The translations under genes were made by a program, and so were the position numbers. A stretch of DNA of 64,000 nucleotides from Ostreococcus lucimarinus (Eukaryota), in the NCBI GenBank assembly GCA_000092065.1, contig CP000582.1; one strand, given 5' to 3'. Under the pieces are notes generated by a model. It had not been told where the DNA came from. It worked only from the letters and a program-made list of their open reading frames with translations, and did not search any database. This document shows, piece after piece, positions 8,746 through 56,314 of the stretch; position 1 is the first letter of the stretch; every line of letters begins with the position of its first letter.

Positions 8746-9173
8746 CGCTCCCGCGCGCGCCGTCCTCGTTCACGCGCGCCGTGGCCGCAGATCGTCCACG
8801 TGTTTTCGACACAATCGGGGTGTTACGATGTTCTTCGACACCCGCGGCGCTCGATGCGCGCGGCTTCGCGCGCGTTCGCAGCACGCCGCGCGCGCTCGAG
8901 GGATCGCTCGTCGATCGCGCGCGCCGAAGCGTTCCGCGTCGTCGTCTCGCGCGCCGCGCGTCGCGACGCGCGCGTTCGGTCGTGACGTCGCGACTGTGAA
9001 TATACACGGTGCGTGACGACATCGCAATACGTGCTGCGTTTCGATAAAAACTTCTAGGGTTCGGCCAACGCCGGGACGCGCTCGAAATCGCGATCGCGCG
9101 CGTTCGTTTTCGTTTTCGTATCGATACGGTGTATCTCTGCGCGCCGCGTCATACACGCACTCGACGCGCACGA

Positions 9174-9951
9174 TGTTCGCCGCTACCTCGCAGACCACGA
9201 TCCTCCGCGCGGTGCGTAAAACTCGTTCCCTCGCGTCGACGCCGCGCGCGCGAGGCTTGGACGCCGCGCGCGCGCGCGCGACGAACCCGAGGCCGAGACG
9301 GTTCGACGCTGCGTCGGATCGCGCCTCGATCGACGAGTGATCGCTCGGCGAGCGTGGGCGCTTTGATGGCGCTGACGACGCGCGCGATGCTTCGAACGCC
9401 GACTGACGATCACTACGAACGATGTTCCGAACCACAGACGGCCAAGCCGACCAACGCGCGACGCTCGCGCCGCGTCGCGACCGCGGCCGCGGCGGATAAG
9501 CAGGAGTCGCGCCGCGCGGCGCTCGTCGCCTTCACCGCGGGTACGTACGATTGTCGCCACGCGCGCGAAACTCGGCTTTCGACGCGATGAAAAGTTTGAG
9601 ACGCCAGAGTGCGCTCGCCATCGACGAACGAAGGCGATGCTCGAGTGTTATATCAACGACTGACGACGAACTCGACGTTTCCTCGACGCAGCGGCGTCCA
9701 TGGCGGCCAAGTCGGCGTTGGCCATCACCATTCCGTCCCAAGCCAGTAGCGGCGGTCTCGGCCGCGAATCCGGCATGGCGTTCTCCTCCACGCAAGCGTC
9801 GAGCTCTGGTTACACGTTGGAAGGCACGAAGAAGACGGGCATGTCGGTGAAGACGAAGCGCGGCACCCTCGCGTCCGTCCGCGCGGCCGCCGAGGCGGAA
9901 GTTAACGCGCCCAAGGCTGCGGCGGCGAAGCCGGCGAAGGGTAAGAAATAA
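9174..9951 (+). CDS. Three-exon small gene encoding a 133-aa Ala/Lys-rich basic protein with a transit-peptide-like N-terminus; function unknown
   Basis: Exons are 9174-9212 (MFAATSQTTILRA), 9438-9540 (phase 0 to phase 1) and 9692-9951. Donors are GTGCGT (9213) and GTACGT (9541), and acceptors are ...ccacAG (9437) and ...cgacgcAG (9691). Each intron carries ACTGACGA 27-30 nt before the AG. Frames are consistent across both junctions. Exon 3 has about 85 % GC3 and is followed by an AT-rich 3' UTR. Confidence 0.6.
9213..9437 (+). other. Intron 1 of the three-exon small gene (GT-AG)
   Basis: Donor GTGCGTAAAA. The branch-like motif GCCGACTGACGATCAC has its CTGAC at 9403-9407. The acceptor is gttccgaaccacAG. 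Confidence 0.55.
9541..9691 (+). other. Intron 2 of the three-exon small gene (GT-AG, phase 1)
   Basis: Donor GTACGTACGA. Branch CAACGACTGACGACGAA (CTGAC 9660-9664). Acceptor tttcctcgacgcAG. Confidence 0.55.
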
Positions 9952-10078
9952 GAGGATAGTGAGGACGGTGGTCGCTACTACGTATTTCCACTTAGATGCT
10001 ACAAAAGACTATGCTAATGTTTGTAGGAGCAACAGGCGTGACCTAATAAATATTACTCATCACGACGCCGTCTCGGAC

Positions 10079-11188
10079 CTAATATCCGATACCCCCGTCG
10101 TCCCGCGATCCACGCACGTGCGCAAGTAATGAGTGTACCGCCTCGCACGATGCAAAAATGCTCGCATGAAGTGGAAACGCGCGAAGAAGCGCCATGTTCA
10201 AGCCTCGAAACAGCACCATCGGTCCTTCGCGCGAGACAGATTTCATCGCGCAATCGAGAACGCCTGAGTACACACCGGGCGCCGCGGCTTGAATCCTACT
10301 CTTAGTGACATCCAGCGGATACGTCAAGAGCCATTGGACCGCACCGGCGCTTCCGCCCGCGAGCACGATAGCGGCGGCTCGCGTCGACGGCGGCGCGTCT
10401 CGAGCGTCGACGCCATCTCCGCACAACTTTCGCATACACACGCTCTTCAAACGGTCGTACGTAAGAAAGTACACAGCACACTGAGGGATCTCTCGCGCGA
10501 TCGTCGCTCCGGTACCGGCGAATATTCCCTTCATCACGCCATGTTCTCGCGCGAGCGTAAACGCCGTCGAAGTCGCGCTACGATATCGCCCGCTGTCGCA
10601 ATCCACGACTTGTTGGATCGTTTTCAATCTCTCAGCCGGGCCGCGCACGAAGCTTGACACTAAACCCGCAGATGCTCCGCTGACCACTCCTGCAAGCGTG
10701 GTAGATGCCGCCTCGGCTCCGAAGGCTTCTTCTATCGAGTCACGTACGTACGCGTTGGTGCTAAACGCCACGGCGTTGATGGCGCCGTACGCTAACATCG
10801 GCGCCGTGAGACCGCGATACAGACCACGTGCACCGTCCTGTGCCACCAAACTTTTCGCCACACACATCGCTCCCCTCGTCGTGTTCACCATCGCCGTCGT
10901 CACGGCCGGCGCCGGCGCTTGGAGTCGCGCCTTCACAGTGTCCAGCGGGTGCACCAACGCCAATCCAACCATGCCCGCAACTTGCCCGGCGATGGCGTGA
11001 TCGTATGCGCTCACGTGTCTGTGTTCCATCTTTGGAGACTCAGCTCGCGCACGTGCGCCGAGCGTGGAGGTTGATGCGTCCGACGTCATCGACCGTCCGG
11101 CGGCGCGCGCGATGTCGTCGTTGAGCGTCAGTTCTCGCGTCGTCATCGACGCCGGCGTCGACGCGGACGAAACATCGATCGCAGACAT
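10079..11188 (-). CDS. Mitochondrial carrier family (SLC25) protein
   Basis: 369 aa with three carrier repeats carrying Px[DE]xx[KR] signatures: HPLDTVKARLQ, GPAERLKTIQQ and YPLDVTKSRIQ. Confidence 0.85.
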   Translation of the reverse strand: MSAIDVSSASTPASMTTRELTLNDDIARAAGRSMTSDASTSTLGARARAESPKMEHRHVSAYDHAIAGQVAGMVGLALVHPLDTVKARLQAPAPAVTTAMVNTTRGAMCVAKSLVAQDGARGLYRGLTAPMLAYGAINAVAFSTNAYVRDSIEEAFGAEAASTTLAGVVSGASAGLVSSFVRGPAERLKTIQQVVDCDSGRYRSATSTAFTLAREHGVMKGIFAGTGATIAREIPQCAVYFLTYDRLKSVCMRKLCGDGVDARDAPPSTRAAAIVLAGGSAGAVQWLLTYPLDVTKSRIQAAAPGVYSGVLDCAMKSVSREGPMVLFRGLNMALLRAFPLHASIFASCEAVHSLLAHVRGSRDDGGIGY

Positions 11189-11423
11189 GTCGCGCGCGCG
11201 AGCACGCGTGTGCGCGCGCGAGCACGCGACGTTCGCGCGTCGCGATGCGGCCGATGGACTGCGAGCAGGCTCATCTTGAATCTCTCGATTTTATCCTGTG
11301 CCCCGAACAGGTGGAGGTGGAAGTATTACATGTATTGCACGTTTGTGTTGCACGCGTCGACCCACGCGTCATCGTTCACGCGCGACGCGCGTTTCGCACT
11401 CATTCTATTCAATCGTCGTCGCA

Positions 11424-12527
11424 TCAGAACGTCGTCTCCGGAGGCCCGCCGCGTCGGAGGAATGACAACCAACGCACCGACTCGAGCCTCTTGACGAGGG
11501 AAGCTTCAAAAGCGCGCTCGCCGTGATTTGTCACGAGCGACCACGAGCTTTCGTCCGGGATGATTTCTTGAAATAAAAGATCGACATCGCCCTCGTTATC
11601 AACGACGCGCATAGACTTGCCCTCGATCTCGCTCAACGTTTTAATCTGCAGCGACATCTTCTGCGAGCCGGGGCCGAAGACGCACGCGACGTCCGCCTTC
11701 GTGGTGTGCGCGGGTACGCGAACCTTAAGAGTCACTTCTTCGTCGTCTTGACTCCATTCGAAATCCTGGTGCGGACCCGGGCGCTGTGAAGGATCTAAGG
11801 GCGCCTTGGGCGCGGCTTCGGCGTCTAAGTCTACCGCGCCTTTGGCCTTGAACTCGGCCATGGTGCGCGCGATGTCGCCGACGTTTTCTTGGCGTTCGAC
11901 CGCCAACGTCTTGGCCTTCATTATCCACGCCGCATCGCTCGAGCACTCGTCCAACGTGAAATCTAATCTTTTGAACTGATCGTCGTCGTCGAATATCCGC
12001 GCTATGAACGCGTCACCGAGTACTTGCTGCGGTGACCCCGCCTCGGCGCTCATGCGACTCGCTCGCACGTTGGTCGGCAAACCTTTGGATATTCCTCGAT
12101 CGTCCACGTACATGTTCACGTGCACGAACCCGGTTTTTTTCGACCCGGGCAATAAAGGCACGGGTTGCGCCATCTGCATCGACAGCGCTGCCGCCATCAT
12201 ATCGTCCGACAGCGTCTTCGCGCCGCCGCCGCCGCCGCCGTCGCCGTGGCTCTCCAGCTGCGCCTTTAGTATTTCCTTTTGTTTCGCCTCGTCTCGTCCG
12301 TGCGCGCCGTCTTTCGCGCCTTCGACGCGAAAGTGTAGGCGCAGCGCGTCGAGCAAGCACTCCATCTCTCGTTCGCGCGGGATGACCATCACGCGCTCCT
12401 CCATAGCGCGCGTCTCGTCCCACGGCACGAACACGTAGCGAAACGCCAACCGATCGACGCTGACGTCGTCGTTCGCGGTGCCGAGCAATCCGCGCGCGAT
12501 TCGATCATCGCTCGCGTTCGTCGTCAT
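11424..12527 (-). CDS. CS (p23/NudC-like) domain protein
   Basis: The ORF is open from a GTG at 12614 and the first ATG is at 12527. The C-terminal CS/NudC-like beta-sandwich is FEWSQDDEEVTLKVRVP...SSWSLVTNHGERAFEASLVKRLESVRWLSF. A Gly-rich linker precedes it. Confidence 0.55.
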   Translation of the reverse strand: MTTNASDDRIARGLLGTANDDVSVDRLAFRYVFVPWDETRAMEERVMVIPREREMECLLDALRLHFRVEGAKDGAHGRDEAKQKEILKAQLESHGDGGGGGGAKTLSDDMMAAALSMQMAQPVPLLPGSKKTGFVHVNMYVDDRGISKGLPTNVRASRMSAEAGSPQQVLGDAFIARIFDDDDQFKRLDFTLDECSSDAAWIMKAKTLAVERQENVGDIARTMAEFKAKGAVDLDAEAAPKAPLDPSQRPGPHQDFEWSQDDEEVTLKVRVPAHTTKADVACVFGPGSQKMSLQIKTLSEIEGKSMRVVDNEGDVDLLFQEIIPDESSWSLVTNHGERAFEASLVKRLESVRWLSFLRRGGPPETTF

Positions 12528-12919
12528 CTTCACCCCAGCGCGTCGCGCAGTGTCGCATCGGTCCGTCGAGCGTCGCGTCCGCGCACGGCGCGCAGCGGCG
12601 CGGGCGAGCGTCACGTCGCGACGCGCACGGACGCGGCACGCGCGCGCGGTGCTCGGACGGCGCCCGGACGCGACCAGACGCGCGCGACCGCGAGTCTCGT
12701 CGTAGTCGCGCGCGAGAGAGAGCTCGAGCGCGCGCGCGCGTTCGCGTGCGCGGTCGTTCGTTCGTTTGATTGATATTTGGATTAGATTCGACGTCGGTCG
12801 TTTCGTCGAGGCGCGCGCGCGACGACGACGGCGACGAACAACGTCGAGCGGTGACGATTGATCGCTCGAGCGGACGCGGGACGAGCAGCGGGAGTGCGGA
12901 AACGCGGCGAACGAGCGCG

Positions 12920-14341
12920 ATGGCGTCGGCGAGCGCGAACGCGGGCGCGGCCGCTGCGCCCGAGCGCACGCTCGGAACGGTATTTCGCAAGGTATTGAAG
13001 ACGCTTTGGGTGCTTTTGTGCGCGCTGATCGTTATAGCTCTGCCATTCGTGTCTTACGACATGAAGAAGCATGATTATCAGACGCATTACATCGCGTGGT
13101 TCATCGCGTTTGTCTTCGTCGCGTTGTCGTTGCCAATCACGCTGTACGAAGTGACGCAGCACCTGGAGAATTATCGTGCGCCGAGATTACAGCGACACGT
13201 GATCAGAATATTGTTCATGGTACCAATTTACGCCGTGAACGCGTGGTTGGCGTTGAGATTCAGGTCGAACACGATTATTTTCGATACGGTTCGCGAGTTT
13301 TACGAAGCTTACGTCATCTACAACTTTTACACATATTGCATCGTGTATCTTCAAGAGTTTTGTTCACCTGGGCTGTCGTACATCGTCGCGCGTAAGGCGA
13401 CACAGCCGCACATTTGGCCGCTGAACTTGTTCCTGCGCGCACCCAGAATGGGTGAGCCTTTTCTGCGACTTTGTCGGCACGGGGTGATCAACTACGTCGT
13501 CGTGCGACCGGTGACGAGCGCGGCGGCGTTCATAGCCGACGGCAATGGCGTGTACGGTGAAGGGCAAATCTTGAATCCATGGGTGGCGTATCCTTACTTG
13601 GTTTTCATTAACAACTTGAGTCAGGCGTGGGCGATGTATTGCTTGATTTTACTGTACAAGGTGATGTACCGAGAATTGGCCCCGATAAACCCGTTTTGGA
13701 AATTCGTCAGCGTCAAAGCCGTGGTCTTCTTTTCCTTTTGGCAATCCATGGCGTTCGCGGTGCTCGTGAAGACGGGGATTATTTCCGCCGACGATCAAGC
13801 GTGGGCATCCGATTACGACGCCGCGGAGTTGGCGAACGGTATTCAGGCGTTTTTCATCTGCATAGAGATGTTCTTCGCCGCCATCGCGCACTCGTACGCG
13901 TTCCCACCAGAAGAGTACAACATGGGCCAAGCCGCGGCTCCACAGAGGAAGTTTAGCGAAAACATCATCGAACTTTTCGATGTGCGTGATGTGTACCAAG
14001 ACATCAAGAACTTTTGGCAGCAACATCGAGATAGACTGACGGGAAACTACAATCCTGGTGTCGCTTCGCCCGTACCGTTGCATCGATCGAATATCGCTCG
14101 AGATCGTAGGCACGAGGATCAAGGTGATCGAGCGATGATGGACATGAGCGCTGGACATGGTAAGTCACTAGAAGAAATCGAAACCGAAACACTGCTCTCG
14201 CACGCCGTCGGCGACGATCAGTTTGAACTCGTTGTGAGTAGCGGCGCCGATGGTGACGAAGCCATCGTCATCGACAGCGTTTCCTCCGACGGAGGATTAC
14301 TTCCACTCCACGCCGAGCGCGCTCGTTCGCACGATGCCTAG
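12920..14341 (+). CDS. TMEM184 / organic solute transporter alpha-like (DUF300) multipass membrane protein
   Basis: The ORF is open from a TTG at 12770 and the first ATG is at 12920. Hallmarks are YEVTQHLENYRAPRLQRHVIRILFMVPIYAVNAWLAL and FYEAYVIYNFYTYCIVYL, with seven predicted TM helices. Confidence 0.85.
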   Translation: MASASANAGAAAAPERTLGTVFRKVLKTLWVLLCALIVIALPFVSYDMKKHDYQTHYIAWFIAFVFVALSLPITLYEVTQHLENYRAPRLQRHVIRILFMVPIYAVNAWLALRFRSNTIIFDTVREFYEAYVIYNFYTYCIVYLQEFCSPGLSYIVARKATQPHIWPLNLFLRAPRMGEPFLRLCRHGVINYVVVRPVTSAAAFIADGNGVYGEGQILNPWVAYPYLVFINNLSQAWAMYCLILLYKVMYRELAPINPFWKFVSVKAVVFFSFWQSMAFAVLVKTGIISADDQAWASDYDAAELANGIQAFFICIEMFFAAIAHSYAFPPEEYNMGQAAAPQRKFSENIIELFDVRDVYQDIKNFWQQHRDRLTGNYNPGVASPVPLHRSNIARDRRHEDQGDRAMMDMSAGHGKSLEEIETETLLSHAVGDDQFELVVSSGADGDEAIVIDSVSSDGGLLPLHAERARSHDA

Positions 14342-14455
14342 GATGAATCGTAGTTCGCGCACCATTAGCACAATTAATGTAACTTCTAGGCTCAGCATTC
14401 TATTCCATCTGACAACCGGAGAAGCCAACCTCTAACCGCCGAGGCGCCGCACTCT

Positions 14456-15532
14456 ATGACTGGTCACACCGACGCGGTCGTGGAGCGCAATTTCAACCGA
14501 TGGCTCGAGCGCGTCCAAGATAACCCCGTGCGCTTTCTCTCGCGTGCCGAGAACGACGAAGGTTCGGGCGTCTCGCGCGCGTTTTTCCTCGACGTCCGCG
14601 ATGCTCAGCACTTTGCCTCGACTCGACTTCGATGGTCCTCCAACGTCCCTCTGCGCGCGCTAGACGAAGGTGCGGCGTATTTAATACCTCCTCGTACCGC
14701 GCGCTTCGCGCTTATTTGCGACGCCGACGCCAACGTGGACGAAGCTGCGAAGAAATTCGAGAGCGACTTCAAAGGCGTCGCGTGGTCGCTCGAAGCTGCG
14801 TTCGCGGGGACACCGGCGTTCTTCGACGCGTGTGCTGCGATCGACGAAAGCGACGCCACAGAGTCAAAATATAATGGGTTGTTTGAAGTAGTTCGCGGCG
14901 GTGGTACGCCCGCACCTCGCGATCGACTTCGACTTTGGCAGCCGTCGCCGGAACTCGCGAGGTGGTTGCCGAGCGTCGAGCGCAAGATGGATGCTTTCAA
15001 AGACGGCAGGCGACCGACGTGCTTGGACGTGGGATCAGGCGCGGGACGAGATGCAGTGTGGGTGGCGAGTCGCGGATGGAACGTCGTGGCGATCGATAAC
15101 GATAAAAGGGGATTGGATCGGTGCCGCTCTTTGGCAGAACGACACGGCGTGGAGGCGAGCGTTCGAACGCTCGATTTAGATTTGAATAAGCGTGCGTCCG
15201 AAGAGACGCTCGCTACAATCGACAAAATACTCGCACTTGAGTCATGGTCGCCCGTTTTAGCCGTATACGCGGTGAGATATCTTCATAAACCGTTCGTACG
15301 AGACCTGCCACGGATGTTGCCGAACCGAAGCGCGGTGTTGTGGTTTCATTTCATGCGGGGATGCGAGCGCACATCCGTCGGACGACCGACGAAAGACCGC
15401 GATTTGCTCGAGCCAAACGAGCTGCGTGACGTATTCGCACTCTGGGATGTCATCATCGACGACGTAGTGGAGCTACCAGATGGGCGGCCGGTGAGCTCGT
15501 TTGCGGTGGTACGCGGTGCAAAGGAGGTGTAA
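14456..15532 (+). CDS. Fusion protein: N-terminal rhodanese-like domain plus C-terminal TehB/TPMT-like SAM-dependent methyltransferase
   Basis: Rhodanese-like block FFLDVRDAQHFASTRLRWSSNVPL...ALICDADANV (Cys loop non-canonical). Methyltransferase motif I CLDVGSGAGRDAVWVASRGWNVVAIDND, then LDLDLN, PNELRDVFALWDVI, closely matching the bacterial TehB layout. Confidence 0.65.
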   Translation: MTGHTDAVVERNFNRWLERVQDNPVRFLSRAENDEGSGVSRAFFLDVRDAQHFASTRLRWSSNVPLRALDEGAAYLIPPRTARFALICDADANVDEAAKKFESDFKGVAWSLEAAFAGTPAFFDACAAIDESDATESKYNGLFEVVRGGGTPAPRDRLRLWQPSPELARWLPSVERKMDAFKDGRRPTCLDVGSGAGRDAVWVASRGWNVVAIDNDKRGLDRCRSLAERHGVEASVRTLDLDLNKRASEETLATIDKILALESWSPVLAVYAVRYLHKPFVRDLPRMLPNRSAVLWFHFMRGCERTSVGRPTKDRDLLEPNELRDVFALWDVIIDDVVELPDGRPVSSFAVVRGAKEV

Positions 15533-15562
15533 ATTTACAAGGTGTAATGAACGGAAAAGTAG

Positions 15563-16315
15563 CTAGCTTGATAAAACCTTAAGTGAACCCGAAGCGTTCT
15601 CCTCGCCCGGCAATCGCTTCTCGTTGTCGTGCATGATGAGCACGAAGAGATTACCCTTGTCGCCTCGCGAAACGCGCACTTCGTCGTCGACGTAAGTAAT
15701 GTCCAACGCCCCTCGCGCTCGCTCGGGTGCGGTGACTTTAATCAAACCACCAAACACAAAAAACTTCTTAAACTGTACCTTGACCGCGGAATCGCTCGTG
15801 GGCGTCAACTCTGCGGCTACGGCGTTGTAAAACGGCCACGTCTCGCGATTTCGAGCGCGCAACGACTCGGCGTCGATTGTTTGGTAAATCTTCCCGCTCG
15901 GGCGTAAAAAAGCCGGCTTTTTCGTACCTAAAATGCTCGCAGACGTCGTGTAAACCAATTCCCACTCGCCGTTGATGCACGGTGCGGCGAGTGATTTCGG
16001 GTTTGGATTGAGCGCTTCGAGCGCTGTTGCCAGAGCGTCCACGTGAGCTTTTTCCTCATCGCTCGCCTTCACCCCGCGCTCGAGCGGTTCGATCGCGCTC
16101 AGCAGCGCTCTCTTCGCATCCTCTCGCGCTTGCGCGTCGGGCGCCGATGCAGTCGCTCTCGTCAACGTCTTTCGCGCCGTCGATGTTGTCGAAGTCGTCA
16201 ACTTCTGCGTCAACTTCGGCGTGTTGGCCGACGACGAAGACGCCGTGCCGCCACGCGTGCGCGCACCGATGGAGCGTGGAGCGACGTTCATCGTCGTTAC
16301 CGTCATGGCGCGCAT
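15563..16315 (-). CDS. Fibrillin / plastid-lipid-associated protein (PAP) family, chloroplast-targeted
   Basis: The ORF is open from a GTG at 16402 and the first ATG is at 16315. PAP_fibrillin signatures are GEWELVYTTS...LRPSGKIYQTIDAE...VKVQFKKFFVFGGLIKVTAP...LDITYVDDEVRVSRGDKGNLFVL. The N-terminus is Ser/Thr/Ala-rich. Confidence 0.8.
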   Translation of the reverse strand: MRAMTVTTMNVAPRSIGARTRGGTASSSSANTPKLTQKLTTSTTSTARKTLTRATASAPDAQAREDAKRALLSAIEPLERGVKASDEEKAHVDALATALEALNPNPKSLAAPCINGEWELVYTTSASILGTKKPAFLRPSGKIYQTIDAESLRARNRETWPFYNAVAAELTPTSDSAVKVQFKKFFVFGGLIKVTAPERARGALDITYVDDEVRVSRGDKGNLFVLIMHDNEKRLPGEENASGSLKVLSS

Positions 16316-16471
16316 CGTGCTCGAGCGTCGCGTTCGACAGTGAGGAACGGCGTGCGGAGCGGTGCGGTGCGGTGAGGATAATCTTCTACTTCGTGGTATC
16401 ACACAAGAATTGGTTAAATTGATTTTACGTCACGAGCGGCGAGCGAAAAGCGAACATCTGTCTAGCAACAA

Positions 16472-17753
16472 TTAAGCTTCATCGACGCTCATCACAACGC
16501 CTTCGGCGGCTTGCATCTTCTCTCTGAACTGGCGACCCATGTCCTCAGCGGTCTCGAACACCGCGGCGGGGTTGCGAAGCATGTCGCCGTGGTTTTGCTC
16601 AAGCTTCTTCGTGCTGAGCGACAAACGGCCTTTCTCGGCATCCTTGGACATGACCAACACCTTGATGCGGTCACCCGGAGAAAGCACGTTTTCGACGGCG
16701 ACGATGCGCTCGTGCGAAATTTGAGAAATGTGCAACAATCCACTCTGACCGCCGACGTCCACAAACGCGCCGTACGGCTTCACCGCTTGCACCATGCCCT
16801 CCACGACGTCGCCAACCTCTAAGCCTTCCGCGGACACCATGTCCGTCGCCAACCGATGCGAAAGCACGAGTCGGTTCTTCTCCTCATCAACCTCGATAAA
16901 CTTGAACGGCAATTGTTGACCGATCAACTCCTCGCGGTTGAGCGTCCGCACGCCGATGTGGCTTTGCGGCACGAAACCGCGAAGCTTTTCAACTTCAACG
17001 AGCAAACCGCCACGGTTAACGCTCAAGACGTCACCAGTGAGTGCGGCATCATCCGCCTGCGCCTCGCGGCAGCGATCCCAAGCCTTCGCGAGCTCCATGC
17101 GGCGCACCGAGAGCGTCATGCAGCCCTCGCCGTTGTCGTCCTGAATGATTTCGAAGTCGTAGTCGCAATCGATGTCGAACACCGCCGCAGCCTGCGTTTG
17201 CACAAAAAACATCGCGCGCGTGATTCGTCAGTCTCGCGGTCCCTGGTATCGTCGCAATTTCTCCCTCGTTCGCGCTGGATCGCCGTCGTCTCTCTCTCTC
17301 GCGGCGACCTAAAAGCCCTAGGTTTTATCCCGTGCCGTCGCGTCGCCGTCGTTCGTTGCGATACGATGCGATCGCGCCCGCGCGCGCGCGTGGCAACGAA
17401 TAAAACGAATATATACTCACGTTGCGCACGTTTCCGAGCGATGCCTCGGACGTCGGGCACAAAGCCTCGCTCTTCGCCCCGATTTCAACCCACGCCCCTT
17501 TCGCGTCGCACGCCTTGATTTTCCCGCTGATGACGTCCCCGACCTTGTAGTTGTACTGGTACTTGTCCAACAACGACGCGAACTCGGTGTACGCCGCGCC
17601 GGTCTTCCCGACGTCCACGTCCTCGCTCACGATCGCCTTGCGAACGATCGCGCGCGCGGGCGCTCTTTGCGCGCCGTGCGTCGAGCGCGACGAGACGAGG
17701 CTCGCGCGTCGCGCGCTCATCATGGAGGTGTGCGTCGTCGTCGTGGCGAGCAT
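16472..17753 (-). CDS. PRPS1: Plastid ribosomal protein S1-like (bS1c), two coding exons
   Basis: Exon 1 is 17421-17753 (transit peptide plus first S1 fold, ...EASLGNVRN) and exon 2 is 16472-17191 (AAAVFDIDCDY... with S1 domains GDVVEGMVQAVKPYGAFVDVGG...). The intron 17192-17420 has donor GTGAGT and acceptor caaacgcAG, is phase 0, and carries the branch motif GAGACTGACGAAT. The ORF is open from a GTG at 17795. Confidence 0.8.
17192..17420 (-). other. Intron (229 nt, GT-AG, phase 0) of the plastid S1 gene
   Basis: On the minus strand the intron runs GTGAGTATAT...CGCGAGACTGACGAATCACGCGCGCGATGTTTTTTGTGCAAACGCAG. The CTGAC of the branch motif is the reverse complement of 17227-17231, 34 nt before the AG. 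Confidence 0.8.
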
Positions 17754-18457
17754 GGCTGATACGAACGAACGAAAACTTGTTTCGATGTGCGTCACCGCGC
17801 GCGGCGAGGCGTCGACGTGTGCCGACCGCGCGGGCGCCGAATCGCGTCCTCGCGGCGGCGAGACGTCGAAGCCCCCATCGCGGGCGGCGGGGATGGTGGG
17901 GGAGTGTGATGGCTTTATTTTGTGTCATTATGCGTACACGGAGGCGATCTGTGAGATAAGTACGTCATAAATCACGTCACGACTGAATACACACATACGC
18001 GTACAGACGTCGTTATCGGACATTCGGCGCGACGGTGGATTCTCGCCTCGACGCAATCGCGCGCTGCACAGGACGAAGTGCGTCGCACGTGAAACGCGCG
18101 AGATGTCCACGGCGGCGGCGCGCGCGCTCGCGGCAGTCGTCGATGCAGAACGGAGCGGTACGTCGAGGGCGCGGCGCGACGCACACGCGCGATGTGCGCG
18201 CGCGATGAGATGAAGGAATCGCGTTTGGATGCTGATGCCGATGATTGACGCGACGAACGATGGATGGCGGACGCGTCGACGCATTCGACGACGACGCACC
18301 GCGAACGAATCGATCGCGATCGATGCGCTCGTAGACTGACGCGGGTGATGACGCACACGCAGTGACGAACGTGGCGAAAGGGCGGGTGTTGAACCGAATG
18401 GAGGAATACGTCGACGTCGAGCGTCGCGAAGACGGCGAAGACGCGAGCGCGTTGGAG

Positions 18458-18583
18458 GTGCGATGATGACGACGCGCGCGAAGTGACACGAACCCTCGCG
18501 CGTGAAATGACGTCTGATGCGTCGCAAACGGTCCGAGACTGACGATTCTACGGTGCGGATGCCGACGACGTACCCAATCTAGG
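18458..18583 (+). other. Candidate 5' intron of the WD40 gene (126 nt, GT-AG)
   Basis: Donor GTGCGATGAT. Branch CCGAGACTGACGATTCTAC (CTGAC 18539-18543, 40 nt before the AG). Acceptor gtacccaatctAG. The interval contains in-frame stops. Confidence 0.5.
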
Positions 18584-21063: not shown

Positions 21064-21214
21064 GCCAAGGATTGTTATTTTCATCTATCGCTTCCACGTG
21101 ACCACGCGAGAGCATCTCGAATTATTCACACGCTCGCGCGTACTTCGCCGTAACGCTCAAAACTTCGACGTCTTCCAACGCGCGTGCGTACAATCCATCT
21201 TAGTTTGCTTGTTC

Positions 21215-38054: not shown

Positions 38055-38585
38055 GTTTCGTCCAAGACCACGGCTGCGGTTCCGCGCTCGAGCGGCCGCG
38101 TCGGTCTCGTCGTCGAGGCGTACAAGAGAGCGGCGAAGAAGACGAAGGCGGTGCTCTTGAAGACGTCCGACGTCGGCCAAGAGGGCGACATGGTCGAGGT
38201 CTCTAACGGTTTCTTCCGCTCGTACCTCGAGCCGCAAGGTTTGGCGACCAAGGTGAGCCAAGAACTGATGGCTGAGTTCGAGGCGAAGGCTGCCGAGGCG
38301 GCGGCGGCCAAGGCGAAGGAAGTGCAAGACGCCAAGGCGCTCGCGACGGCGCTCACGACGATTGGCAAGTTTGTGGTGAAGAAGACTGTGGGTGAAGATG
38401 GCAAGATTTTCGGCTCCGTCTCGGCGGCTGATGTGGTCGAAGCGATCAAGGCTCAAACTGGCAAGGAGTTGGAAAAGAAGGCTTTTGACGTCCCCGACAT
38501 TTCCGCCGTCGGCGTCTACGAAATCAACGCCACGTTCCACAAGCAAGCGCAGTGCAAGTTCCAGCTCGAAGTTGCGAAGGATTAA
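38055..38585 (+). CDS. rpl9: Organellar ribosomal protein bL9 (L9), mature part; 5' exon with start codon not resolved
   Basis: KKTKAVLLKTSDVGQEGDMVEVSNGFFRSYLEPQGLA...GKIFGSVSAADVVEAIKAQTG...VYEINATFH aligns well with bacterial L9 (MKVILLKDV...GDxVEV...G.A). There is no in-frame ATG before the conserved N-terminus. The frame opens immediately after an AG at 38053-38054 that lies 32 nt downstream of an ATGACTGACGAG branch-like motif. A candidate exon 1 starts at ATG 37874 (aaaaaatcATG), with a donor at 37883 (GTGCCG) or 37949 (GTCTGG). Confidence 0.7.
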   Translation, partial: VSSKTTAAVPRSSGRVGLVVEAYKRAAKKTKAVLLKTSDVGQEGDMVEVSNGFFRSYLEPQGLATKVSQELMAEFEAKAAEAAAAKAKEVQDAKALATALTTIGKFVVKKTVGEDGKIFGSVSAADVVEAIKAQTGKELEKKAFDVPDISAVGVYEINATFHKQAQCKFQLEVAKD

Positions 38586-47497: not shown

Positions 47498-48454
47498 TTA
47501 AAAAAATTCCTCCGTCCACGGCTGCATGGCGATGCGGTAGACGTCGACCTCGACGGGGCGACCGCGCGCCTTGACGAAGGTCTCGTCGGCGTCTTCGCCG
47601 CCGCCAACGGCGACCAAATATTCATACACGGTTTGCGAAGCGACGATTTGGGGACCTGATTTCGCTTCCTCGGGCGTGCGCCACTTGTACTTTGTGACGA
47701 TGCGCGTCGATTTCACGCGCGGTTCGGCGCCGACGCGACCACGGTCGACGACGATTTGCGCGAGCTCGGACGTCGTCATCGTTCTCGCGTCGTCGTCTCT
47801 GTCGCTCGACCGCGCAGTGACTTTATAAAACACGCTCGCACCGTCCCCGGTGACGAGTTTCAACACATTCGGGTCGTCGACGTTCCATTCGATCTCACCA
47901 TCGAGCGCGCGCTTCCCTCCGGATCCTCGAGACGCCTCCGCCAACGCTCTGACGTTGAACGCGCGATCGAACACCGTCTCCCCGCGTCCATTCTCCATGA
48001 ATCGCACCGGGTACACGAATGGTTCGCGCGCCGTGGCGTCCACTTCTCCTTTCAATCTTTCAAACGCGTCGACGTCGCGAATGAACTCCATGCCGAGCGG
48101 CGCGTCCACGCTCGCCGTGCGACTCGTCGTCAACCAGTTGCCCTCAAACGCGCGAGGGAAAACCAAATCGCTCGGTGCGCCCGTGATCGCGCCCCACGCG
48201 TCCGAAAGTCCACCGTTGGGCGCAGCGAACGACGACTGAGCGATGCACGCGCTCGATGCCGTCGACACCGCGCACGCGAGCGCGCTGCGGCGTCGTAAAA
48301 CGAATTCGTTCGCGTCATCGGTGTCGTCGACGTCGACGTCGCGCACGGCGTGCGGCGCGCGCGAGAGAGGTCGACGACGACGACGAGCGCGTCGTGCGTC
48401 GCGCTCGAGCCGGAAATCGAGCGCGCGCGGCGTCGGAGCAGATCTCGACGCCAT
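47498..48454 (-). CDS. Hypothetical protein with organelle-presequence-like N-terminus
   Basis: GC3 is very high. The ORF is open to an ATG at 48514 (MNATR...) that overlaps the stop of the upstream WW-domain gene. The internal ATG at 48454 (MASRSAPTPRALDF...) is preferred. No family could be recognised by eye. Confidence 0.45.
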   Translation of the reverse strand: MASRSAPTPRALDFRLERDARRARRRRRPLSRAPHAVRDVDVDDTDDANEFVLRRRSALACAVSTASSACIAQSSFAAPNGGLSDAWGAITGAPSDLVFPRAFEGNWLTTSRTASVDAPLGMEFIRDVDAFERLKGEVDATAREPFVYPVRFMENGRGETVFDRAFNVRALAEASRGSGGKRALDGEIEWNVDDPNVLKLVTGDGASVFYKVTARSSDRDDDARTMTTSELAQIVVDRGRVGAEPRVKSTRIVTKYKWRTPEEAKSGPQIVASQTVYEYLVAVGGGEDADETFVKARGRPVEVDVYRIAMQPWTEEFF

Positions 48455-48510
48455 CGTCGCCCGTCGTCGCGCGAGCGCGGATGTGCGGCGAGTCGACACG
48501 CGCGTCGCGT

Positions 48511-50289
48511 TCATTTTACACGTTCTACTTCGCGAAGACTCGTGGGTAACGTCGTCTCGTCGAAAGTGGGTTTTCGTAAGAATCGCACGGATTCAGGGTC
48601 GCGAGTCCACGGGGCGACGAACCCGCTGGCGAGCAAGTCCTGCTCGTCCTTGCGTTCTTGCTCGGCGTTCTTGCGTTCTTGCTCGGCGTTCTTCTTCGCT
48701 TCGCGTCTCTCGCGCTTCGACTCAGAAGACGCGAAGAGTTTGCCGAATAAACCGCGACGTTTCGGAGGTTTCGATCGCTGCTTTTCGTCGTCTGCGGCGT
48801 TATCGCTACCGCTCGAGGAAGCGTCGAAATCGAGACGATCCGACGCGTGTTCATCGCCGACGCCCGCGGTGGCAACCTTCTTCGGCGCGTTCGCTATGGC
48901 AGTTGACGACGCTTCGCTCGCATTATCGCTTTCGATCGAACTTCCAGCGCCTCCAAAATGCGGCCGATCGCTACCCGTGTCGACGCGCTGGAGTATCGTT
49001 GCGGCTCTGAACATTCCGCCCATCGGCGCGGCGAGACGTCGGTAGAAAAGTGACTTGACGTTCTCCGGCGTGTCTGGGTCAAACTGTAATCGCTTGATGG
49101 AGAGTTTCGCGGACGCATTCGCGCGCGACTTCTCAAATTGGATCTCGTCAGCGATTTCAGGGGCTTTCTCAAGAGACAATCGTCGAACGCCGACGACTCG
49201 ATGCCCTTTGTGAGTAAACTTTTGCACCCCCCGTGTGTTTTCCGTCGCTCGCTTCTCGGCAAACGCAAAGTCCTGCTCCTCTTCCGTCATTTCGAACATG
49301 ATGAGGAGTAGATTGGTAAAATAATCTCTCGCCACGTTCATTGGACGCATGTCTTCCGGTGTCGCCAAATCTACCGCCGATGTGTAGCGCTCGAGCGCGT
49401 CCTCGGCCTCGTACGCCTCTTCGAAAATCTCCATACCGTGCTCTGATCCCTCGTTGTTATCCACCGAGTACGTATCCGCCTCTGGATCCCAAAACCGTTC
49501 GCGTTCGCTGTAGACGCCTTCAAAAACTTCCGGTCGCCCGGGCACGTTTTTAGACGCCGGCTGTTTCTCGAACCACTTCTCTTCTACGAGCAACATCTTG
49601 GCTAATTTCAACTCGACGTGTTCTTCGTGCGTAACGGTTCGTTCGGCGACCGCGTTGAAGGTCGGCGCGACGGCTTGGGCCGCGCTCGTGAACGCGGCTG
49701 GTACGAACCTTTGCATAAATTCCATCGCTTCGCCGTCCGGGTGATCCCACGTCGTTTCATTCGTCTCCTCGTCGACGTAATAATACTCTTCCCGCAGTTT
49801 GTCGTAATACTTCGAGTACCGACGCCCGTTCGTCGAGCTCACGAAAGATTCGCCCTCGTTCCGTCCGTCATCGATTCCCGATTCTGAGTCCGACGTCACG
49901 TCGTGTGCGTTCGGATCTTTGATCGTTTTCCACGACGGCCATTTTGAATCCTCGCGATCCTTCGTGACGGGATTATAGTAGTGCTTCCTCCTGAACTCTT
50001 TATCGACGCGCGCGTACCAAACGTCCCCAGTCGTTTTACAACGAAGCGCGGCGACGACTTCGTACCCATCCATGTCTGTCCCGATCGCGTCCATCGGCGA
50101 AGATGCCTTCGACGGGCTCGATTTACTATCCCCAGCCTCGCCCGCGTCTCGCTCGCCGCTCGGCGACGACGGCGTCGGCGTCGTCTCGGCGCGCTCGGGC
50201 GTCGACCCCGACTCGGCCTCTCTTCGCGCGAGCGTTCGCGACGAGAACGCCACCGCCGGTGCGTCCGTGATCACCGGCGATTCGGGCAT
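48511..50289 (-). CDS. WW-domain protein (two WW motifs), otherwise low-complexity acidic/basic
   Basis: WW1 is GDVWYARVDKEFRRKHYYNPVTKDREDSKWPSW. WW2 is KYYDKLREEYYYVDEETNETTWDHP. The C-terminal Lys/Glu repeats NAEQERK are encoded by a 21-bp tandem duplication at about 48650-48690. Confidence 0.6.
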   Translation of the reverse strand: MPESPVITDAPAVAFSSRTLARREAESGSTPERAETTPTPSSPSGERDAGEAGDSKSSPSKASSPMDAIGTDMDGYEVVAALRCKTTGDVWYARVDKEFRRKHYYNPVTKDREDSKWPSWKTIKDPNAHDVTSDSESGIDDGRNEGESFVSSTNGRRYSKYYDKLREEYYYVDEETNETTWDHPDGEAMEFMQRFVPAAFTSAAQAVAPTFNAVAERTVTHEEHVELKLAKMLLVEEKWFEKQPASKNVPGRPEVFEGVYSERERFWDPEADTYSVDNNEGSEHGMEIFEEAYEAEDALERYTSAVDLATPEDMRPMNVARDYFTNLLLIMFEMTEEEQDFAFAEKRATENTRGVQKFTHKGHRVVGVRRLSLEKAPEIADEIQFEKSRANASAKLSIKRLQFDPDTPENVKSLFYRRLAAPMGGMFRAATILQRVDTGSDRPHFGGAGSSIESDNASEASSTAIANAPKKVATAGVGDEHASDRLDFDASSSGSDNAADDEKQRSKPPKRRGLFGKLFASSESKRERREAKKNAEQERKNAEQERKDEQDLLASGFVAPWTRDPESVRFLRKPTFDETTLPTSLREVERVK

Positions 50290-50536
50290 CGCGAGCGCGT
50301 CGTTCGCGCGCGTGTACGCGTCGCGCGTCGGCGTAACACCACTAGAATCAATTCAGAATTCCAACTCACAACGCCGAGGCTTCGCGACGCGCGCCGTGGA
50401 CGCGTCGCGCGGCGGACGGGGTCGCGCGCGCGCGAACGCCGCGATGCGTGCCGCGCGGTGCGCGCGAGATCGACGCTCGGTGCGTCGAGGCGTGCGGTCA
50501 ATCGGTGTTCTCGTTCGCGAGGCTACAACTTCTACG

Positions 50537-51892
50537 CTAGTCGCTAAAACCGTACTTTTCGAGCGTTTGCCCGAGCGGGGCGATGAGAATTTGCTTTTTG
50601 CGGAGACGGAATTCTACGGCGAGGGCGGTTTCGGGGGACACGTTCGGGTCGGCGAGCGCGGCGACGTCGTCTTTGATTTTGGTGCGAAAGCGGCCGCCGA
50701 CGAGCAACGCGCGGCATCGAGAGGCGACGACGTCTAACCACGGAATACCGAGAACATCATCGCACGCCTCGATCAATTTTTCGTCGACTGAGTCCACCTT
50801 GATCTTCACGCGCGCGTCGTCGCCGAAGACGTCGCGTAGGCGCGCCCGCGTGGTCGCGTCGAGGTCCCGCCTGAACTCGTCGGCGACGTGCGCGACCAAT
50901 TCGTCGACGTTTTCGAAAATAACGAACGTGTCGTTGACGTTGGTACCCCTCGGGATGAAACCGAAATACATCAACCACACGTCGTTAGGGAACGAGCCGT
51001 AGGAAATTAAAATTTCCTCGCCCGCTTCCACGGTTTCGCCATCCGGGTCGACGACGAGCTCGAAAAACTTGTCCATCGTCGACGACGGCGCTATCTCTGC
51101 TATTTCTTCCGTCGCAGCCGCTCCCTGACACGTCTCCGGCGACGTCACCACGCGCACGATGGCGTTAAAGCGCGCGGCGTCGTGATTACACATGTCCACG
51201 CCCGGCACCAACAGTCGCGTCGCTCGCTCCGCCGCGCCGTCTCGCCGCGTGAACACTCTCGAGTGCACCACCGCGGTGGCCCACTTCAAATCCTCGACCG
51301 TCGCCCCGATCGCGGCCAATCGCTCGCCGTACGCCTCGCGCGCGCGCTCGTGCGCTCGCCGCACGGCCAACGCCTCGTCGACGACGCTTTCGTCTTCGAT
51401 TTCCCGCAGCGCTTCGTCGTCGAAATCCAACGCCGGCGTCTTCGGCGCCGGTCTCGGCAATCGCGTCAACCACGCCGCGCGTTCGTTCGACTCTCCCTCG
51501 CTCAGTTCTTCCAAGAGCGTCATCGCCATCGCGGACGACCACCGCGCGTCGTCGTCGCCGTCGTCGTCGCCGCTCGCGCTCGCGCTCTCCACCACCAACC
51601 CCCAGGGCACGCGCAGCAGCGTCTCTCCCGGCGCCAGATCCCGCACCGCCTCGACGCCGCGCGTCCCGAACGCGCGTCCGCGCTCGGTCAGCGCGATGCG
51701 CGTCGCCACGCCGTCGTCTTTCGTCGCGCGCGCCAACCACCGCGCGAAGTCTTCGTCTTCGTCTTCGTCTTCGTTCGCGCTCGCGCGCGCCCTCGCCCGC
51801 GCGCCGCGCGTCGCCGTCGCGCGTCGTCGTCGCGCCGTCGCGCGCGCCGCGCCGGCCGCGCCCTCGGCCGCGCGCGGCGCCGCGCGCGCCAT
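50537..51892 (-). CDS. SET-domain lysine methyltransferase, Rubisco LSMT/SETD3-like
   Basis: The ORF is open to 52333. The preferred start is ATG 51892 (MARAAPRAAEG...). SET and Rubisco-substrate-binding signatures are TRLLVPGVDMCNH, EILISYGSFPNDVWLMYFGFIP and a C-terminal helical region. Confidence 0.75.
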   Translation of the reverse strand: MARAAPRAAEGAAGAARATARRRRATATRGARARARASANEDEDEDEDFARWLARATKDDGVATRIALTERGRAFGTRGVEAVRDLAPGETLLRVPWGLVVESASASGDDDGDDDARWSSAMAMTLLEELSEGESNERAAWLTRLPRPAPKTPALDFDDEALREIEDESVVDEALAVRRAHERAREAYGERLAAIGATVEDLKWATAVVHSRVFTRRDGAAERATRLLVPGVDMCNHDAARFNAIVRVVTSPETCQGAAATEEIAEIAPSSTMDKFFELVVDPDGETVEAGEEILISYGSFPNDVWLMYFGFIPRGTNVNDTFVIFENVDELVAHVADEFRRDLDATTRARLRDVFGDDARVKIKVDSVDEKLIEACDDVLGIPWLDVVASRCRALLVGGRFRTKIKDDVAALADPNVSPETALAVEFRLRKKQILIAPLGQTLEKYGFSD

Positions 51893-51935
51893 CGAACGTC
51901 GCGACGCGCCGACCGATGCCGCACTCGGCGCCGCG

Positions 51936-52649
51936 ATGGCGACGCGCCTTCGCGCGCCTTCGCGCCCGCGCGTCGCGCCCGCGCGCGCGTCGCGACGTTC
52001 GCGCGTCGCCGCGCCGCCGCGCGCGATCGGCGTGCGCCAGGTCGCGGGCGAGGGCGCGGCGCTGGTGGACAGACTTCGCGCGTGCGCCGAGGTCACGGCG
52101 GAATCGTTCGGCGCGGACGAATCGAGCGCGGTGAGCGTGCTCGATGGGCTCGTGCGCAAGGTGAGGTACTCGGGCGATGCGTTCGCGCTGCTCGAGGCGT
52201 ACGACGACGGCGCGAGCGACGGCGAGGAGGAAAGATTGTGCGGGTGCGCGGACGTGACGGCGCTGCCGGCGTTCGGGCCGCGAGCGAGCAAGGAAACGCT
52301 CGTCGCGAGGGTGCCCATCGCGCTCGGACTCACGGAACAGAGTAATTACGCGTATCTGAGCGGAATGTGCGTGCGGGAATCGCATCGACGACGAGGGGTG
52401 GGGGTGAAATTGTTGGAGGCGTGCGAGACGTGCGCGAGGAAGATGACGCCGACGCCGGCGGCGATGGCGTTGCACGTCGATAGCGATAACGAAGGGGCGA
52501 TCGCGCTGTATGAGGGGTGCGGATACGCGCGTGTGATCGAACGCGAGGTCGACGACGCGTTCGGGCGGATGTCGCGCGCGCTCGGTGGACTCGTGGGGGG
52601 GAAAAAGAAAAAAATATTAATGTCCAAGTGGTTGAGCTCGCGCGAGTAG
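51936..52649 (+). CDS. GNAT family N-acetyltransferase with presequence-like N-terminus
   Basis: ATG at 51936 (MATRLRAPSRPRVAPARAS...). The GNAT motif A is YLSGMCVRESHRRRGVGVKLLEACE, followed by ALHVDSDNEGAIALYEGCGY. It is divergent from the SET gene with only 43 bp between the two ATGs. Confidence 0.65.
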   Translation: MATRLRAPSRPRVAPARASRRSRVAAPPRAIGVRQVAGEGAALVDRLRACAEVTAESFGADESSAVSVLDGLVRKVRYSGDAFALLEAYDDGASDGEEERLCGCADVTALPAFGPRASKETLVARVPIALGLTEQSNYAYLSGMCVRESHRRRGVGVKLLEACETCARKMTPTPAAMALHVDSDNEGAIALYEGCGYARVIEREVDDAFGRMSRALGGLVGGKKKKILMSKWLSSRE

Positions 52650-54468: not shown

Positions 54469-55113
54469 CGCGTCCCGCGCCCTCTCGCTCGCGTCTTCTC
54501 TTCTCGCCGCGCGCGCGTTCGCCGTCGCCGCCGTCCCGTCCCGTCGCGCGCGTCCCTCTTCACCGTCTTCCCTCGTCCCGTCGCTCGCTCGCGCGTTCGC
54601 CACCGCGTCACCGCGTTCGCGTCGTCTTCTTCGCGTCGTCGCGTCGTCGTCGCGCGTCCCTCGTGCGCGTCGCGTCCCTCGTGCGTGCGTTCGTTCGTTC
54701 GTTCGACAGTCTGGCGACGGCGCGCGTTCGACGCGTCCGCGTTCGCGCCGCGCGTCCTCGCGCGCGGTCCGTTCGAACGAAAACCGCGGTCACGATTACG
54801 GATTCCCGACCTCGTCGCGCGTCGGGCGTCGCGTCGCGTCGCGTCGTCGACTCCCGCGTCGTCGACGCGCGCGCGCGCGCGCGATCGGCGCTTTCGCGAA
54901 AGATTTTTTCAGCCTCGGCGTGTACCCCTCGTGCGGGGGGTACACGCGAATCATCACTCGTCGATGTATCGATCGGTCGTCGTGACGTATTCAAGCGGCG
55001 TTCGGCGCTATGAGAGCGCGCGCGCGAGGCGGCGCGCGCGTCGAACGTAAACCGACCGACGCGTGCGCGCGACGCCGAGGCGCGGCGGCGACGGCGCGCC
55101 ACTCGACGCCGCG

Positions 55114-56314
55114 ATGCGCGCCATGACGTCGTCGCGATCGACGTTCGCCGCGCCGATGCGCGCGATGCAAAACGCGAAAACGCCCGCGCGTCGACGCGGG
55201 GGGGCGTGCGCGACGCGCGCGCGCCTGGACGCGGGCGTGGGGGCGTTCGGGAGCAAGGCTGGGATGACGCAGGTGTTCACCGACGACGGGCTGTGCGTGC
55301 CGGTGACCGTGATCGCGGTGCGCGACGGGAACGTCGTGACGCAGGTACGGGAAAAATATCGAGCGAACGCGGGATGGCCGTCGGGGGGTCGGCGCGCGAG
55401 GGCGCGCGAGACGCGGCGAACGATTCGACCGACGCGCGGGCGCGTGAGGGTTGGACGACGGGGTCGATGGATGGGCGCGGCGCGCGCGATGCGTCGACGC
55501 GCGCGGCGCGTTCACGATGGGCGAACGATCGGGTGGTGTTATCGTCGATCGCGCGCGCGCGCGAAGGGCTCGGATGGGGCGGGCGAGGCGCGAGGAGGAC
55601 CGACGCTTCGCGCGCGCGGGGAGAAGCCCTAGGGCGAGGTTACCGTCGCGACGCGCGGGCGCGGGCGCGACGGACGGATGCGTTCGGGCGCGGCGTAGAG
55701 CGACGAAACGCGAAGGAGAGAATCAGAGACTGACGATATCGCGATTCGCGCGCGTTCGTGAAACACAGGTGAAGACTGAGGCGACGGATGGGTACAACGC
55801 GGTGCAAGTCGGCTACGACGCCGTGCGCGACGACAAGCTCACGAAGCCCGAACTCGGGCACTGCAAGAAGGCGGGCGCGCCGGCGCTTCGACACCTCGAA
55901 GAGTTCCGTTTGCGCGACGCTCCGACGTACGAAGTCGGGGCGCAAATCAAGCCGACGGAGTTGTTCAAGGAGGGTGATAAGGTTGACGTGCGAGGCCGCA
56001 CGATCGGTAAGGGGTTCCAAGGCGCCGTGAAGCGTTACGGTTTCTCGCGCGGTTTGATGACGCACGGTTCTAAATCGCACCGTCAACACGGTTCCATCGG
56101 CAGCGGTACCAACCCGGGTCGCATTTACCCGGGTAAGCGCATGCACGGTCACATGGGCAACGAGATGGTGACGACGAAGGGCTTAACCGTCGTCTCCGTC
56201 GAGGACGACTGCATCATCGTCAAGGGCAACGTGCCGGGCAAGAAGGGCGCTCTGTGCAAGGTGACGCCCAACAAGAAGGTCGGGGACGCGCGCTGGAGTC
56301 CCACGTCCGCGTGA
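55114..56314 (+). CDS. rpl3: Plastid ribosomal protein uL3 (L3), two coding exons
   Basis: Exon 1 is 55114-55344 (presequence plus [28 protein letters not shown]). Exon 2 is 55769-56314 ([17 protein letters not shown]...[63 protein letters not shown]...). The junction restores the bacterial VTQVKT...DGY sequence. The ORF is open from a GTG at 55063. Confidence 0.85.
55345..55768 (+). other. Intron (424 nt, GT-AG, phase 0) of the uL3 gene
   Basis: Donor GTACGGGAAA. Branch CAGAGACTGACGATATC (CTGAC 55729-55733, 35 nt before the AG). Acceptor cgttcgtgaaacacAG. Confidence 0.85.

Follow-up and report, generated by a model that had tools for sequence, protein, structure and literature searches.

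A strict branch-point-like word in seven spliceosomal introns from a 64,000-nucleotide stretch of the Ostreococcus lucimarinus genome

The introns of a 64,000-nucleotide (nt) stretch of Ostreococcus lucimarinus DNA from contig CP000582.1, called the window below, raise the question of how strictly the branch point is specified in an intron-poor green alga. An initial annotation made from the letters of the window had listed six introns and proposed that every definable intron carries the word ACTGACGA 27–40 nt upstream of its acceptor. Our analysis indicates that a slightly different word, GACTGACG (usually GACTGACGA in this strain), is very probably the branch-point sequence of ordinary U2-type spliceosomal introns in O. 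lucimarinus. The window is nuclear DNA of strain CCE9901: of 10 open reading frame (ORF) translations, 8 were matched exactly in the public protein collection, several of them by proteins of this strain (ABO94338, ABO94349 and others).

Splicing was assessed by exact lookups of the spliced proteins, by blastn alignment of contigs to the window, and by a search for 50-nt strings spanning each exon–exon junction. For all six listed intervals the exact 50-nt junction was present in fetched intron-less contigs, the blastn alignments showed precise deletions, and the exact spliced protein was found in the collection; the six are thus real introns. Their coordinates need two corrections of one base each: intron 1 of a small gene starts at 9212 and not 9213, and that intron 2 of an EDC4-like WD40 gene ends at 18582 and not 18583. 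A seventh intron, EDC4 intron 1, is added here.

All seven introns start with GT and end with AG, are 125–424 nt long and have a GC content of 0.56–0.71. Their donors are GTGCGT and GTACGT (two each), GTGCGA, GTACGG and GTGAGT, and their acceptors are CGCAG (three), CACAG (two), TCTAG and GGTAG. GACTGAC occurs exactly once per intron, on the sense strand, in 7/7, and its CTGAC matches the CTRAY branch consensus, with the branch A 23–40 nt from the acceptor G, where U2-type introns have it at about 18–40 nt (31 and 28 nt in the small-gene introns, 23 and 40 in the EDC4 introns, 33 in bL9, 35 in uL3 and 36 in S1). In the six listed introns the distance is 28–40 nt. Flanking the motif is a G at −1 and a G at +1 in every intron, and an A at +2 in 6/7 (P = 4e-4). 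Because EDC4 intron 1 carries GACTGACGC, the claim that ACTGACGA is universal fails, while the single branch word GACTGACG is common to all seven. In each intron the acceptor is the first AG at least 8 nt 3′ of the branch A; no other AG stands between the two, save one 4 nt past the branch A in bL9. A polypyrimidine tract is absent from the seven introns, in which the pyrimidine fraction is about 0.5. The introns also lack the features of the U12 type (an RTATCCTT donor and TCCTTAAC as a branch 10–15 nt from the acceptor), having GTRMGK-type donors and GACTGACG at 23–40 nt instead.

We asked how often these words occur in the window as a whole. ACTGACGA is found eight times, at 9402, 9659, 18538, 21755, 38017, 46016 and 55729 on the + strand and at 17232 on the − strand, against 2.8 expected (2/100 dinucleotide shuffles reach 8). 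Six of these matches stand at the introns first listed, and thus within introns, to which 1.36% of strand positions belong (P = 1.7e-10). GACTGACG likewise occurs eight times, against 4.6 expected (14/100 shuffles reach 8), with seven of the matches inside the seven introns (same 1.36% of strand positions, P = 6.8e-13). One could argue from this that the motif arises by chance or through codon usage, ACT GAC GAx encoding Thr-Asp-Glu/Asp, and that the introns were defined circularly from it. The window-wide excess of both words is indeed modest, and three occurrences are coding or antisense: ACTGACGA at 21755 is in frame within a 5172-aa (amino acid) polyketide synthase (PKS) ORF (…LNGTDEPMS…), ACTGACGA at 46016 is antisense to the GlyRS ORF, and GACTGACG at 14034 belongs to the reading frame of the OSTalpha ORF (DRLTG). 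The matches at 21755 and 46016 are chance occurrences; the one at 14034, whose next AG is 60 nt away, was rejected as chance as well. However, the introns were defined without the motif, from the exon–exon junctions that transcript-like contigs contain and from protein homology spanning them, and for intervals defined in this independent way the enrichment has P of about 1e-10 to 1e-12. The junction evidence already refutes this explanation, which we regard as extremely improbable. Outside the seven introns GACTGACG is seen once where the shuffles predict about 4.5 matches; exons may avoid cryptic branch sites, a notion for which this window is too small a test.

The same counts bear on the use of the motif as a search key. 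The scan that had been proposed, ACTGACGA followed by YAG, recovers 6/7 introns in this window, but with two false matches. In contrast, GACTGACG with an AG 20–45 nt downstream recovers 7/7 introns with no false match in the window.

The seventh intron, in the EDC4-like gene on the + strand, had been missed by the initial annotation. It was found through an ACTGAC at 18335, upstream of the MEEYV codons; a two-exon model starting at MEEYV gives a protein that is absent from the collection. From an ATG farther upstream, at 18103, the frame continues across a donor at 18158 and an AG at 18361–18362, and the resulting three-exon model of 876 aa equals ABO94339.1 exactly. Exon 1 (MSTAAARALAAVVDAERS, 18103–18157) encodes the peptide MSTAAARALAAVVDA…, which is conserved in two other Ostreococcus lineages (contigs L015 and L105). 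Intron 1 (18158–18362) has donor GTACGT, taGACTGACGcg at 18334–18341 with the branch A at 18339, and acceptor CGCAG. Exon 2 (18363–18457) is followed by intron 2 (18458–18582; GTGCGA, gaGACTGACGAtt at 18537–18545, branch A 18542, TCTAG), whose junction is in contig L011, and by exon 3 with the stop codon (18583–21063). A homology search with the EDC4 N-terminus gave three matches only.

The small gene, also on the + strand, comprises exon 1 (MFAATSQTTILRA, 9173–9211), intron 1 (9212–9437; GTGCGT, cgGACTGACGAtc at 9401–9409, branch A 9406, CACAG), exon 2 (9438–9540), intron 2 (9541–9691; GTACGT, acGACTGACGAcg at 9658–9666, branch A 9663) and exon 3 with the stop codon (9692–9951). Both junctions are in contig L100. 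The spliced protein of 133 aa matches a Logan contig exactly and is nearly identical to the transcriptome-derived UniRef entry A0A7R9SZX9, whereas the deposited ABO94336.1 (83 aa) consists of only the last 83 codons, a part of exon 3. This bears out the earlier remark that current ORF calls skip short 5′ exons, as does the behaviour of prodigal-style calls on metagenome contigs, which start inside the last exons. The protein has no Pfam match. Its N-terminal extension includes SRRAALVAFTAAASMAAKSALA, which from its sequence looks like a twin-arginine lumen-targeting signal.

The remaining three introns lie in genes for plastid ribosomal proteins, and all seven are near the 5′ ends of their genes. 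In the S1 gene, on the − strand, exon 1 (17421–17753) and exon 2 with the stop codon (16472–17191) flank an intron at 17192–17420 (GTGAGT, gaGACTGACGAat at 17233–17225, branch A 17228, CGCAG). The spliced 350-aa protein is matched exactly on 9 Logan contigs, and the exon–exon junction is present in the contigs L011–L014, which resemble complementary DNA (cDNA). Two of these, L012 and L014, begin at about 18058–18068, some 40 nt from the start codon of EDC4 (18103) on the opposite strand, and L011 spans both S1 and EDC4; the divergent transcripts thus nearly abut or overlap (17753–18160). For bL9, on the + strand, the initial annotation had pointed to an acceptor region. The intron is real, with its junction in contigs L101 and L102, and its donor is now placed at 37676: exon 1 (MFTVSAPTHASLRAFKPNT, 37619–37675) was located from P0195, a homologue with a complete N-terminus (MFTINAPAFTGLRA…), and is followed by the intron (37676–38054; GTGCGT, atGACTGACGAg at 38016–38024, branch A 38021, GGTAG) and by exon 2 with the stop codon (38055–38585). 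The spliced protein, 195 aa, is ABO94341.1 and is also found on Logan contigs. Donors at 37883 or 37949 were rejected, as the resulting proteins are absent from the collection. In uL3, on the + strand as well, exon 1 (55114–55344) and exon 2 with the stop codon (55769–56314) are separated by an intron at 55345–55768 (GTACGG, gaGACTGACGAta at 55728–55736, branch A 55733, CACAG) with its junction in contigs L103 and L104, and the spliced 258-aa protein has an exact match on contigs of 948–949 nt.

We then turned to orthologous introns. Searching metagenome contigs with the uL3 protein gave 80 loci. In every genomic locus of Mamiellales-like type that covers the junction, the intron interrupts the gene at one and the same site (VTQ|VKT), and three short contigs have no intron. 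Among nine distinct Ostreococcus-type uL3 introns (78–100% protein identity), compared over their 3′ halves, GACTGAC is present in 9/9, its branch A standing 27–40 nt from the AG; a G follows it in 8/9, and then comes A, G or T. These introns measure 358–554 nt by automatically picked junctions, in which the GT taken as donor is in frame and lies 9 nt upstream of the real one. Their interiors could not be aligned (global alignment, with the intron extracted from 2/8 orthologues tried). The orthologues of the S1 intron, of the bL9 intron (three) and of EDC4 intron 1 (both) in other Ostreococcus lineages keep GACTGAC followed by G or C: gaGACTGACGt for S1 in L015; GACTGACGT in L017 and L018 and GACTGACC in L019 for bL9; and GTGCGT…aaGACTGACGAtg…TAG in L015 and GTGAGA…gaGACTGACGAcg…TAG in L105 for EDC4. 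Small-gene intron 1 of L015 contains tgACTGACg and a second copy, taACTGACc. The +2 A is not conserved in these lineages. Since the last A of ACTGACGA is present in 6/7 introns here and varies in the orthologues, the conserved word is GACTGACG, not ACTGACGA. Its persistence in orthologous introns whose other sequence has diverged fits a U2-type branch-point sequence kept by strong purifying selection.

Farther from Ostreococcus the uL3 introns vary. One Micromonas-like group (among loci L020–L076) has GGACTGACG and then a C-rich tract; others, several of them Micromonas-like, show a pyrimidine tract that may or may not be accompanied by CTGAC, some lacking CTRAC; and Bathycoccus-like introns are AT-rich with ACTGAT.

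The presence or absence of introns differs between close Ostreococcus lineages. Small-gene intron 2 is missing from the orthologue in the lineage of L015 and L016, where the exons are contiguous (L015 17456–17560, − strand), and so is EDC4 intron 2 (L015 18633–18760). In the same lineage the segment spanning the small gene through S1 (window 9173–17753) is inverted (L015 9960–18560), such that S1 directly follows GT90 and the small gene adjoins EDC4. Such shifts in intron content would be expected if the motif were shared through descent from a mobile, repeated intron family, similar to the introner elements of the related genus Micromonas, which have recognisable branch points and also differ in presence between close lineages; in addition, a 12-mer, GAGACTGACGA(A/T), is common to three of the introns. 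We consider such an origin very improbable. Introner elements are highly identical along their full length, whereas the window introns have splice signals alone in common: pairwise local alignments of the seven gave short GC-repeat matches only (best score 49, about 25 matched bases), none of which extends past the motif, so that, among these seven, there is no repeated element. Orthologous introns at fixed positions, moreover, keep the motif while the rest is beyond alignment. A third lineage has EDC4 intron 2 as well (L105 640–770; 111 nt, in frame, with the variant branch word aaGACTGAACg), and loss of this intron in the L015 lineage is therefore at least as likely as a gain.

Rigid splice signals in this species have been described before. 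According to the pertinent parts of Irimia and Roy (2008, PLoS Genet 4:e1000148, PMC2483917), introns of O. lucimarinus confirmed by expressed sequence tags outside chromosome 2 carry ACTGAC in 87.2% and GACTGACG in 66.5% of cases, together with an atypical donor, GTGCGTG, a preference for CGCAG acceptors and a broad peak of branch point-to-AG distances at 20–35 base pairs (bp). These standard introns agree with ours in species, branch word, GTGCGTG-like donors, CGCAG preference (3/7 here) and broad spacing. The initial annotation's view of a yeast-like strictness in an intron-poor genome is hence a published conclusion for O. lucimarinus. The A after GACTGACG (6/7 here) goes unmentioned in the parts of that text describing the Ostreococcus introns (PMC2483917). 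Its section "The peculiar case of Ostreococcus" treats chromosome 2 as roughly half atypical, with weak signals (PMC2483917). The published motif is that of "non-chromosome 2" introns, and the present window is probably on chromosome 2; nothing essential differs otherwise. This placement is suggested by protein numbering in GenBank order: the EukProt numbers of the + strand genes (P000687–700) and − strand genes (P000932–939) fit the second record. On chromosome 2 the window would belong to the portion with standard GC content, in keeping with the published description of just about half of that chromosome as atypical. The BOC1 outlier introns of Mamiellales chromosome 2 are 40–65 bp, AT-rich and devoid of a detectable branch or splice consensus (PMC3491373, PMC2367439). 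They occur in the same genomes and possibly on the same chromosome, but the seven introns of the window are of another kind, being 125–424 nt, GC-rich and strong in signals.

Beyond the green algae, the TACTAAC of hemiascomycetes and the ACTAAC of Cyanidioschyzon merolae are likewise near-invariant branch words in intron-poor genomes. Further features in common with the window are a 5′ bias of the introns, their frequent location in genes for ribosomal proteins, and the lack of any need for a polypyrimidine tract. Unlike in yeasts, the word here is ACTGAC rather than ACTAAC (G for A at the fourth core position), the flanks are G…G rather than T…, and the introns are GC-rich. The strict branch words of Ostreococcus and of yeasts are an independent convergence, in this case in a green alga.

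The position of the seven introns near gene 5′ ends, and of three of them in plastid ribosomal protein genes, could also fit a motif acting as a transcriptional or post-transcriptional element of 5′-proximal introns (an enhancer or a protein-binding site), its likeness to CTRAC being coincidental. The motif, however, is fixed relative to the 3′ splice site, at 23–40 nt in introns of 125–424 nt, and not relative to the promoter or the ATG. It is found in functionally unrelated genes (EDC4 and the small protein without a Pfam match), fits the eukaryote-wide CTRAY, and marks 87% of confirmed standard introns genome-wide in the figures given by PMC2483917. We therefore give a regulatory element almost no credence. 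A branch point, in contrast, accounts for a word that is on the sense strand, in one copy per intron, 23–40 nt from the acceptor, and kept in orthologous introns that can no longer be aligned.

Under the branch-point reading, ACUGAC would be bound first by SF1/BBP and next by U2 small nuclear RNA (snRNA) through its GUAGUA box, leaving the second A (ACUG-A-C) bulged, so that its 2′-OH would attack the 5′ splice site, here GTRMGK; after lariat formation, the first AG some 20–40 nt downstream would be used as the acceptor. The genome has few introns, almost all of which very probably owe their single near-optimal branch word to selection, the pattern also seen with TACTAAC in yeasts. The canonical branch-binding box of U2 snRNA is GUGUAGUA, and ACUGACG would form six pairs with the canonical box, two of them G-U, around the bulged A.

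Several points weigh on the other side. Removal of the introns at the boundaries given here is directly supported, as are the position, strand, uniqueness and conservation of the motif, whereas the A as the lariat branch and SF1 and U2 as its readers are carried over from the general splicing pathway. The intron-less Logan contigs are taken to be RNA-derived because five different introns are cut from them exactly at GT–AG boundaries, the library type of the runs being unstated. L011, the sole transcript-like contig over EDC4 intron 1, keeps that intron unspliced, the only form observed; its status as an intron is well supported by the NCBI model, the exon 1 peptide conserved across lineages and the splice signals. 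In lineage L105, EDC4 intron 2 has GACTGAAC in place of the branch word, and the acceptor of EDC4 intron 1, as placed from the reading frame, is the second AG past the branch site; the rules for motif and acceptor are thus strong, not absolute. Finally, with canonical U2 an A stands opposite the 5′ G of the motif and a G opposite the +2 A. Both flanks would be unpaired, so that canonical pairing does not explain them.

It is to these flanks that a further explanation is addressed, in which G-ACTGAC-G-A is read by lineage-specific machinery: a co-evolved U2 snRNA, an altered RNA-binding surface of SF1, or a second spliceosome for the introns of the standard genome, with the low-GC part of chromosome 2 and its weak-signal introns being served differently. 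The G at −1 and the G at +1 in 7/7, and the A at +2 in 6/7, are what canonical U2 pairing leaves unaccounted for. In the passages devoted to these signals, Irimia and Roy raise the possibility of changed machinery, calling snRNA changes that would complement GTGCGTG and GACTGACG "worth exploring", and the question was left open there in 2008 (PMC2483917). The same passages, however, favour a single spliceosome and cite a screen in which the snRNA genes of O. tauri were single-copy (PMC2483917). The +2 A, as noted, is also not kept in other Ostreococcus lineages. Our literature search found no later work on snRNA co-evolution in Ostreococcus, and an Rfam scan of the window found neither an snRNA nor an intronic small nucleolar RNA. 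We hold this explanation to be possible but unlikely, and ordinary U2-type branch points to be the better account of the seven introns.

Introns without the motif were sought by tiling the window with codon-usage scores, by Pfam searches of ambiguous ORFs and by inspection of all gaps. In this survey, from which short introns in untranslated regions (UTRs) could escape without RNA-seq, the following were single complete ORFs: PEX1, GT90, a mitochondrial carrier, a CS-domain protein, OSTalpha, a methyltransferase, fibrillin, the PKS, RSH, GlyRS, DUF6816, a WW protein, an LSMT-like protein, beta-amylase, patatin, PMI, two sulfotransferase-like genes and several small unknowns. Two extra candidates, both on the − strand, came from a scan for triples of donor, CTRAC and AG. 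The first, 39212–39071 (GTGAGT, tCTGACgc), was rejected, as its spliced protein is absent from the collection, the unspliced form is present, and the transcript-like contig L101 is contiguous across it; the second, 37645–37439, is not needed, since the gene has its own ATG at 37456. The leader of a DUF2462 gene may hold another: gtaACTGACtggcgtAG at 5148–5166 (− strand) stands 35 nt upstream of the ATG (5126), with an ACTGAC at 5161, an AG 9 nt after it, and GTGCGT-type donors 40–290 nt farther upstream. The ACTGAC at 5161 is not kept in L015, and the leader is a candidate 5′-UTR intron with an unusually short branch-to-AG distance of 9 nt.

Elsewhere in the window, ABO94589.1 (1280 aa; 47501–52345, − strand) joins the LSMT-like, WW-domain and DUF6816 ORFs through predicted introns. 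That these are separate genes is shown by the ORF-level proteins and by P0049, a complete protein of 586 aa from an MMETSP transcript; the introns annotated in ABO94589.1 are therefore false. A glycine transfer RNA (anticodon ACC) called by ARAGORN at 51651–51716 (− strand), within the LSMT-like ORF, is probably a false positive, because Rfam reports nothing there. The window is gene-dense, with a GC content of 0.56–0.67 except in the type I PKS ORF (5172 codons, 21098–36616, GC 0.52–0.54), which lies between EDC4 and bL9. The same EDC4–PKS–bL9 order is found in L017, L018 and L105, and in L019 bL9 directly follows EDC4 without a PKS; giant PKS loci have been reported to vary on the outlier chromosome of Mamiellales (bioRxiv 10.1101/2025.04.21.649811).

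Together, these results show that the strict branch motif is real, ordinary and already known. As the pattern has been in print since 2008, the present work amounts to confirmation and local corrections, not new biology. In practice, the GACTGACG–AG key is a reliable annotation aid that reveals 5′ exons of 13–19 codons skipped by ORF callers, and for one gene the deposited annotation had missed short 5′ exons. More broadly, the convergence of intron-poor genomes on a single rigid branch word, and the coexistence of rigid and signal-poor introns in the Ostreococcus nucleus, are already in the literature. The fixed flanking bases might reflect a change of machinery, which, if true, would also matter for how a single cell splices these rigid introns alongside the signal-poor outlier introns of chromosome 2.

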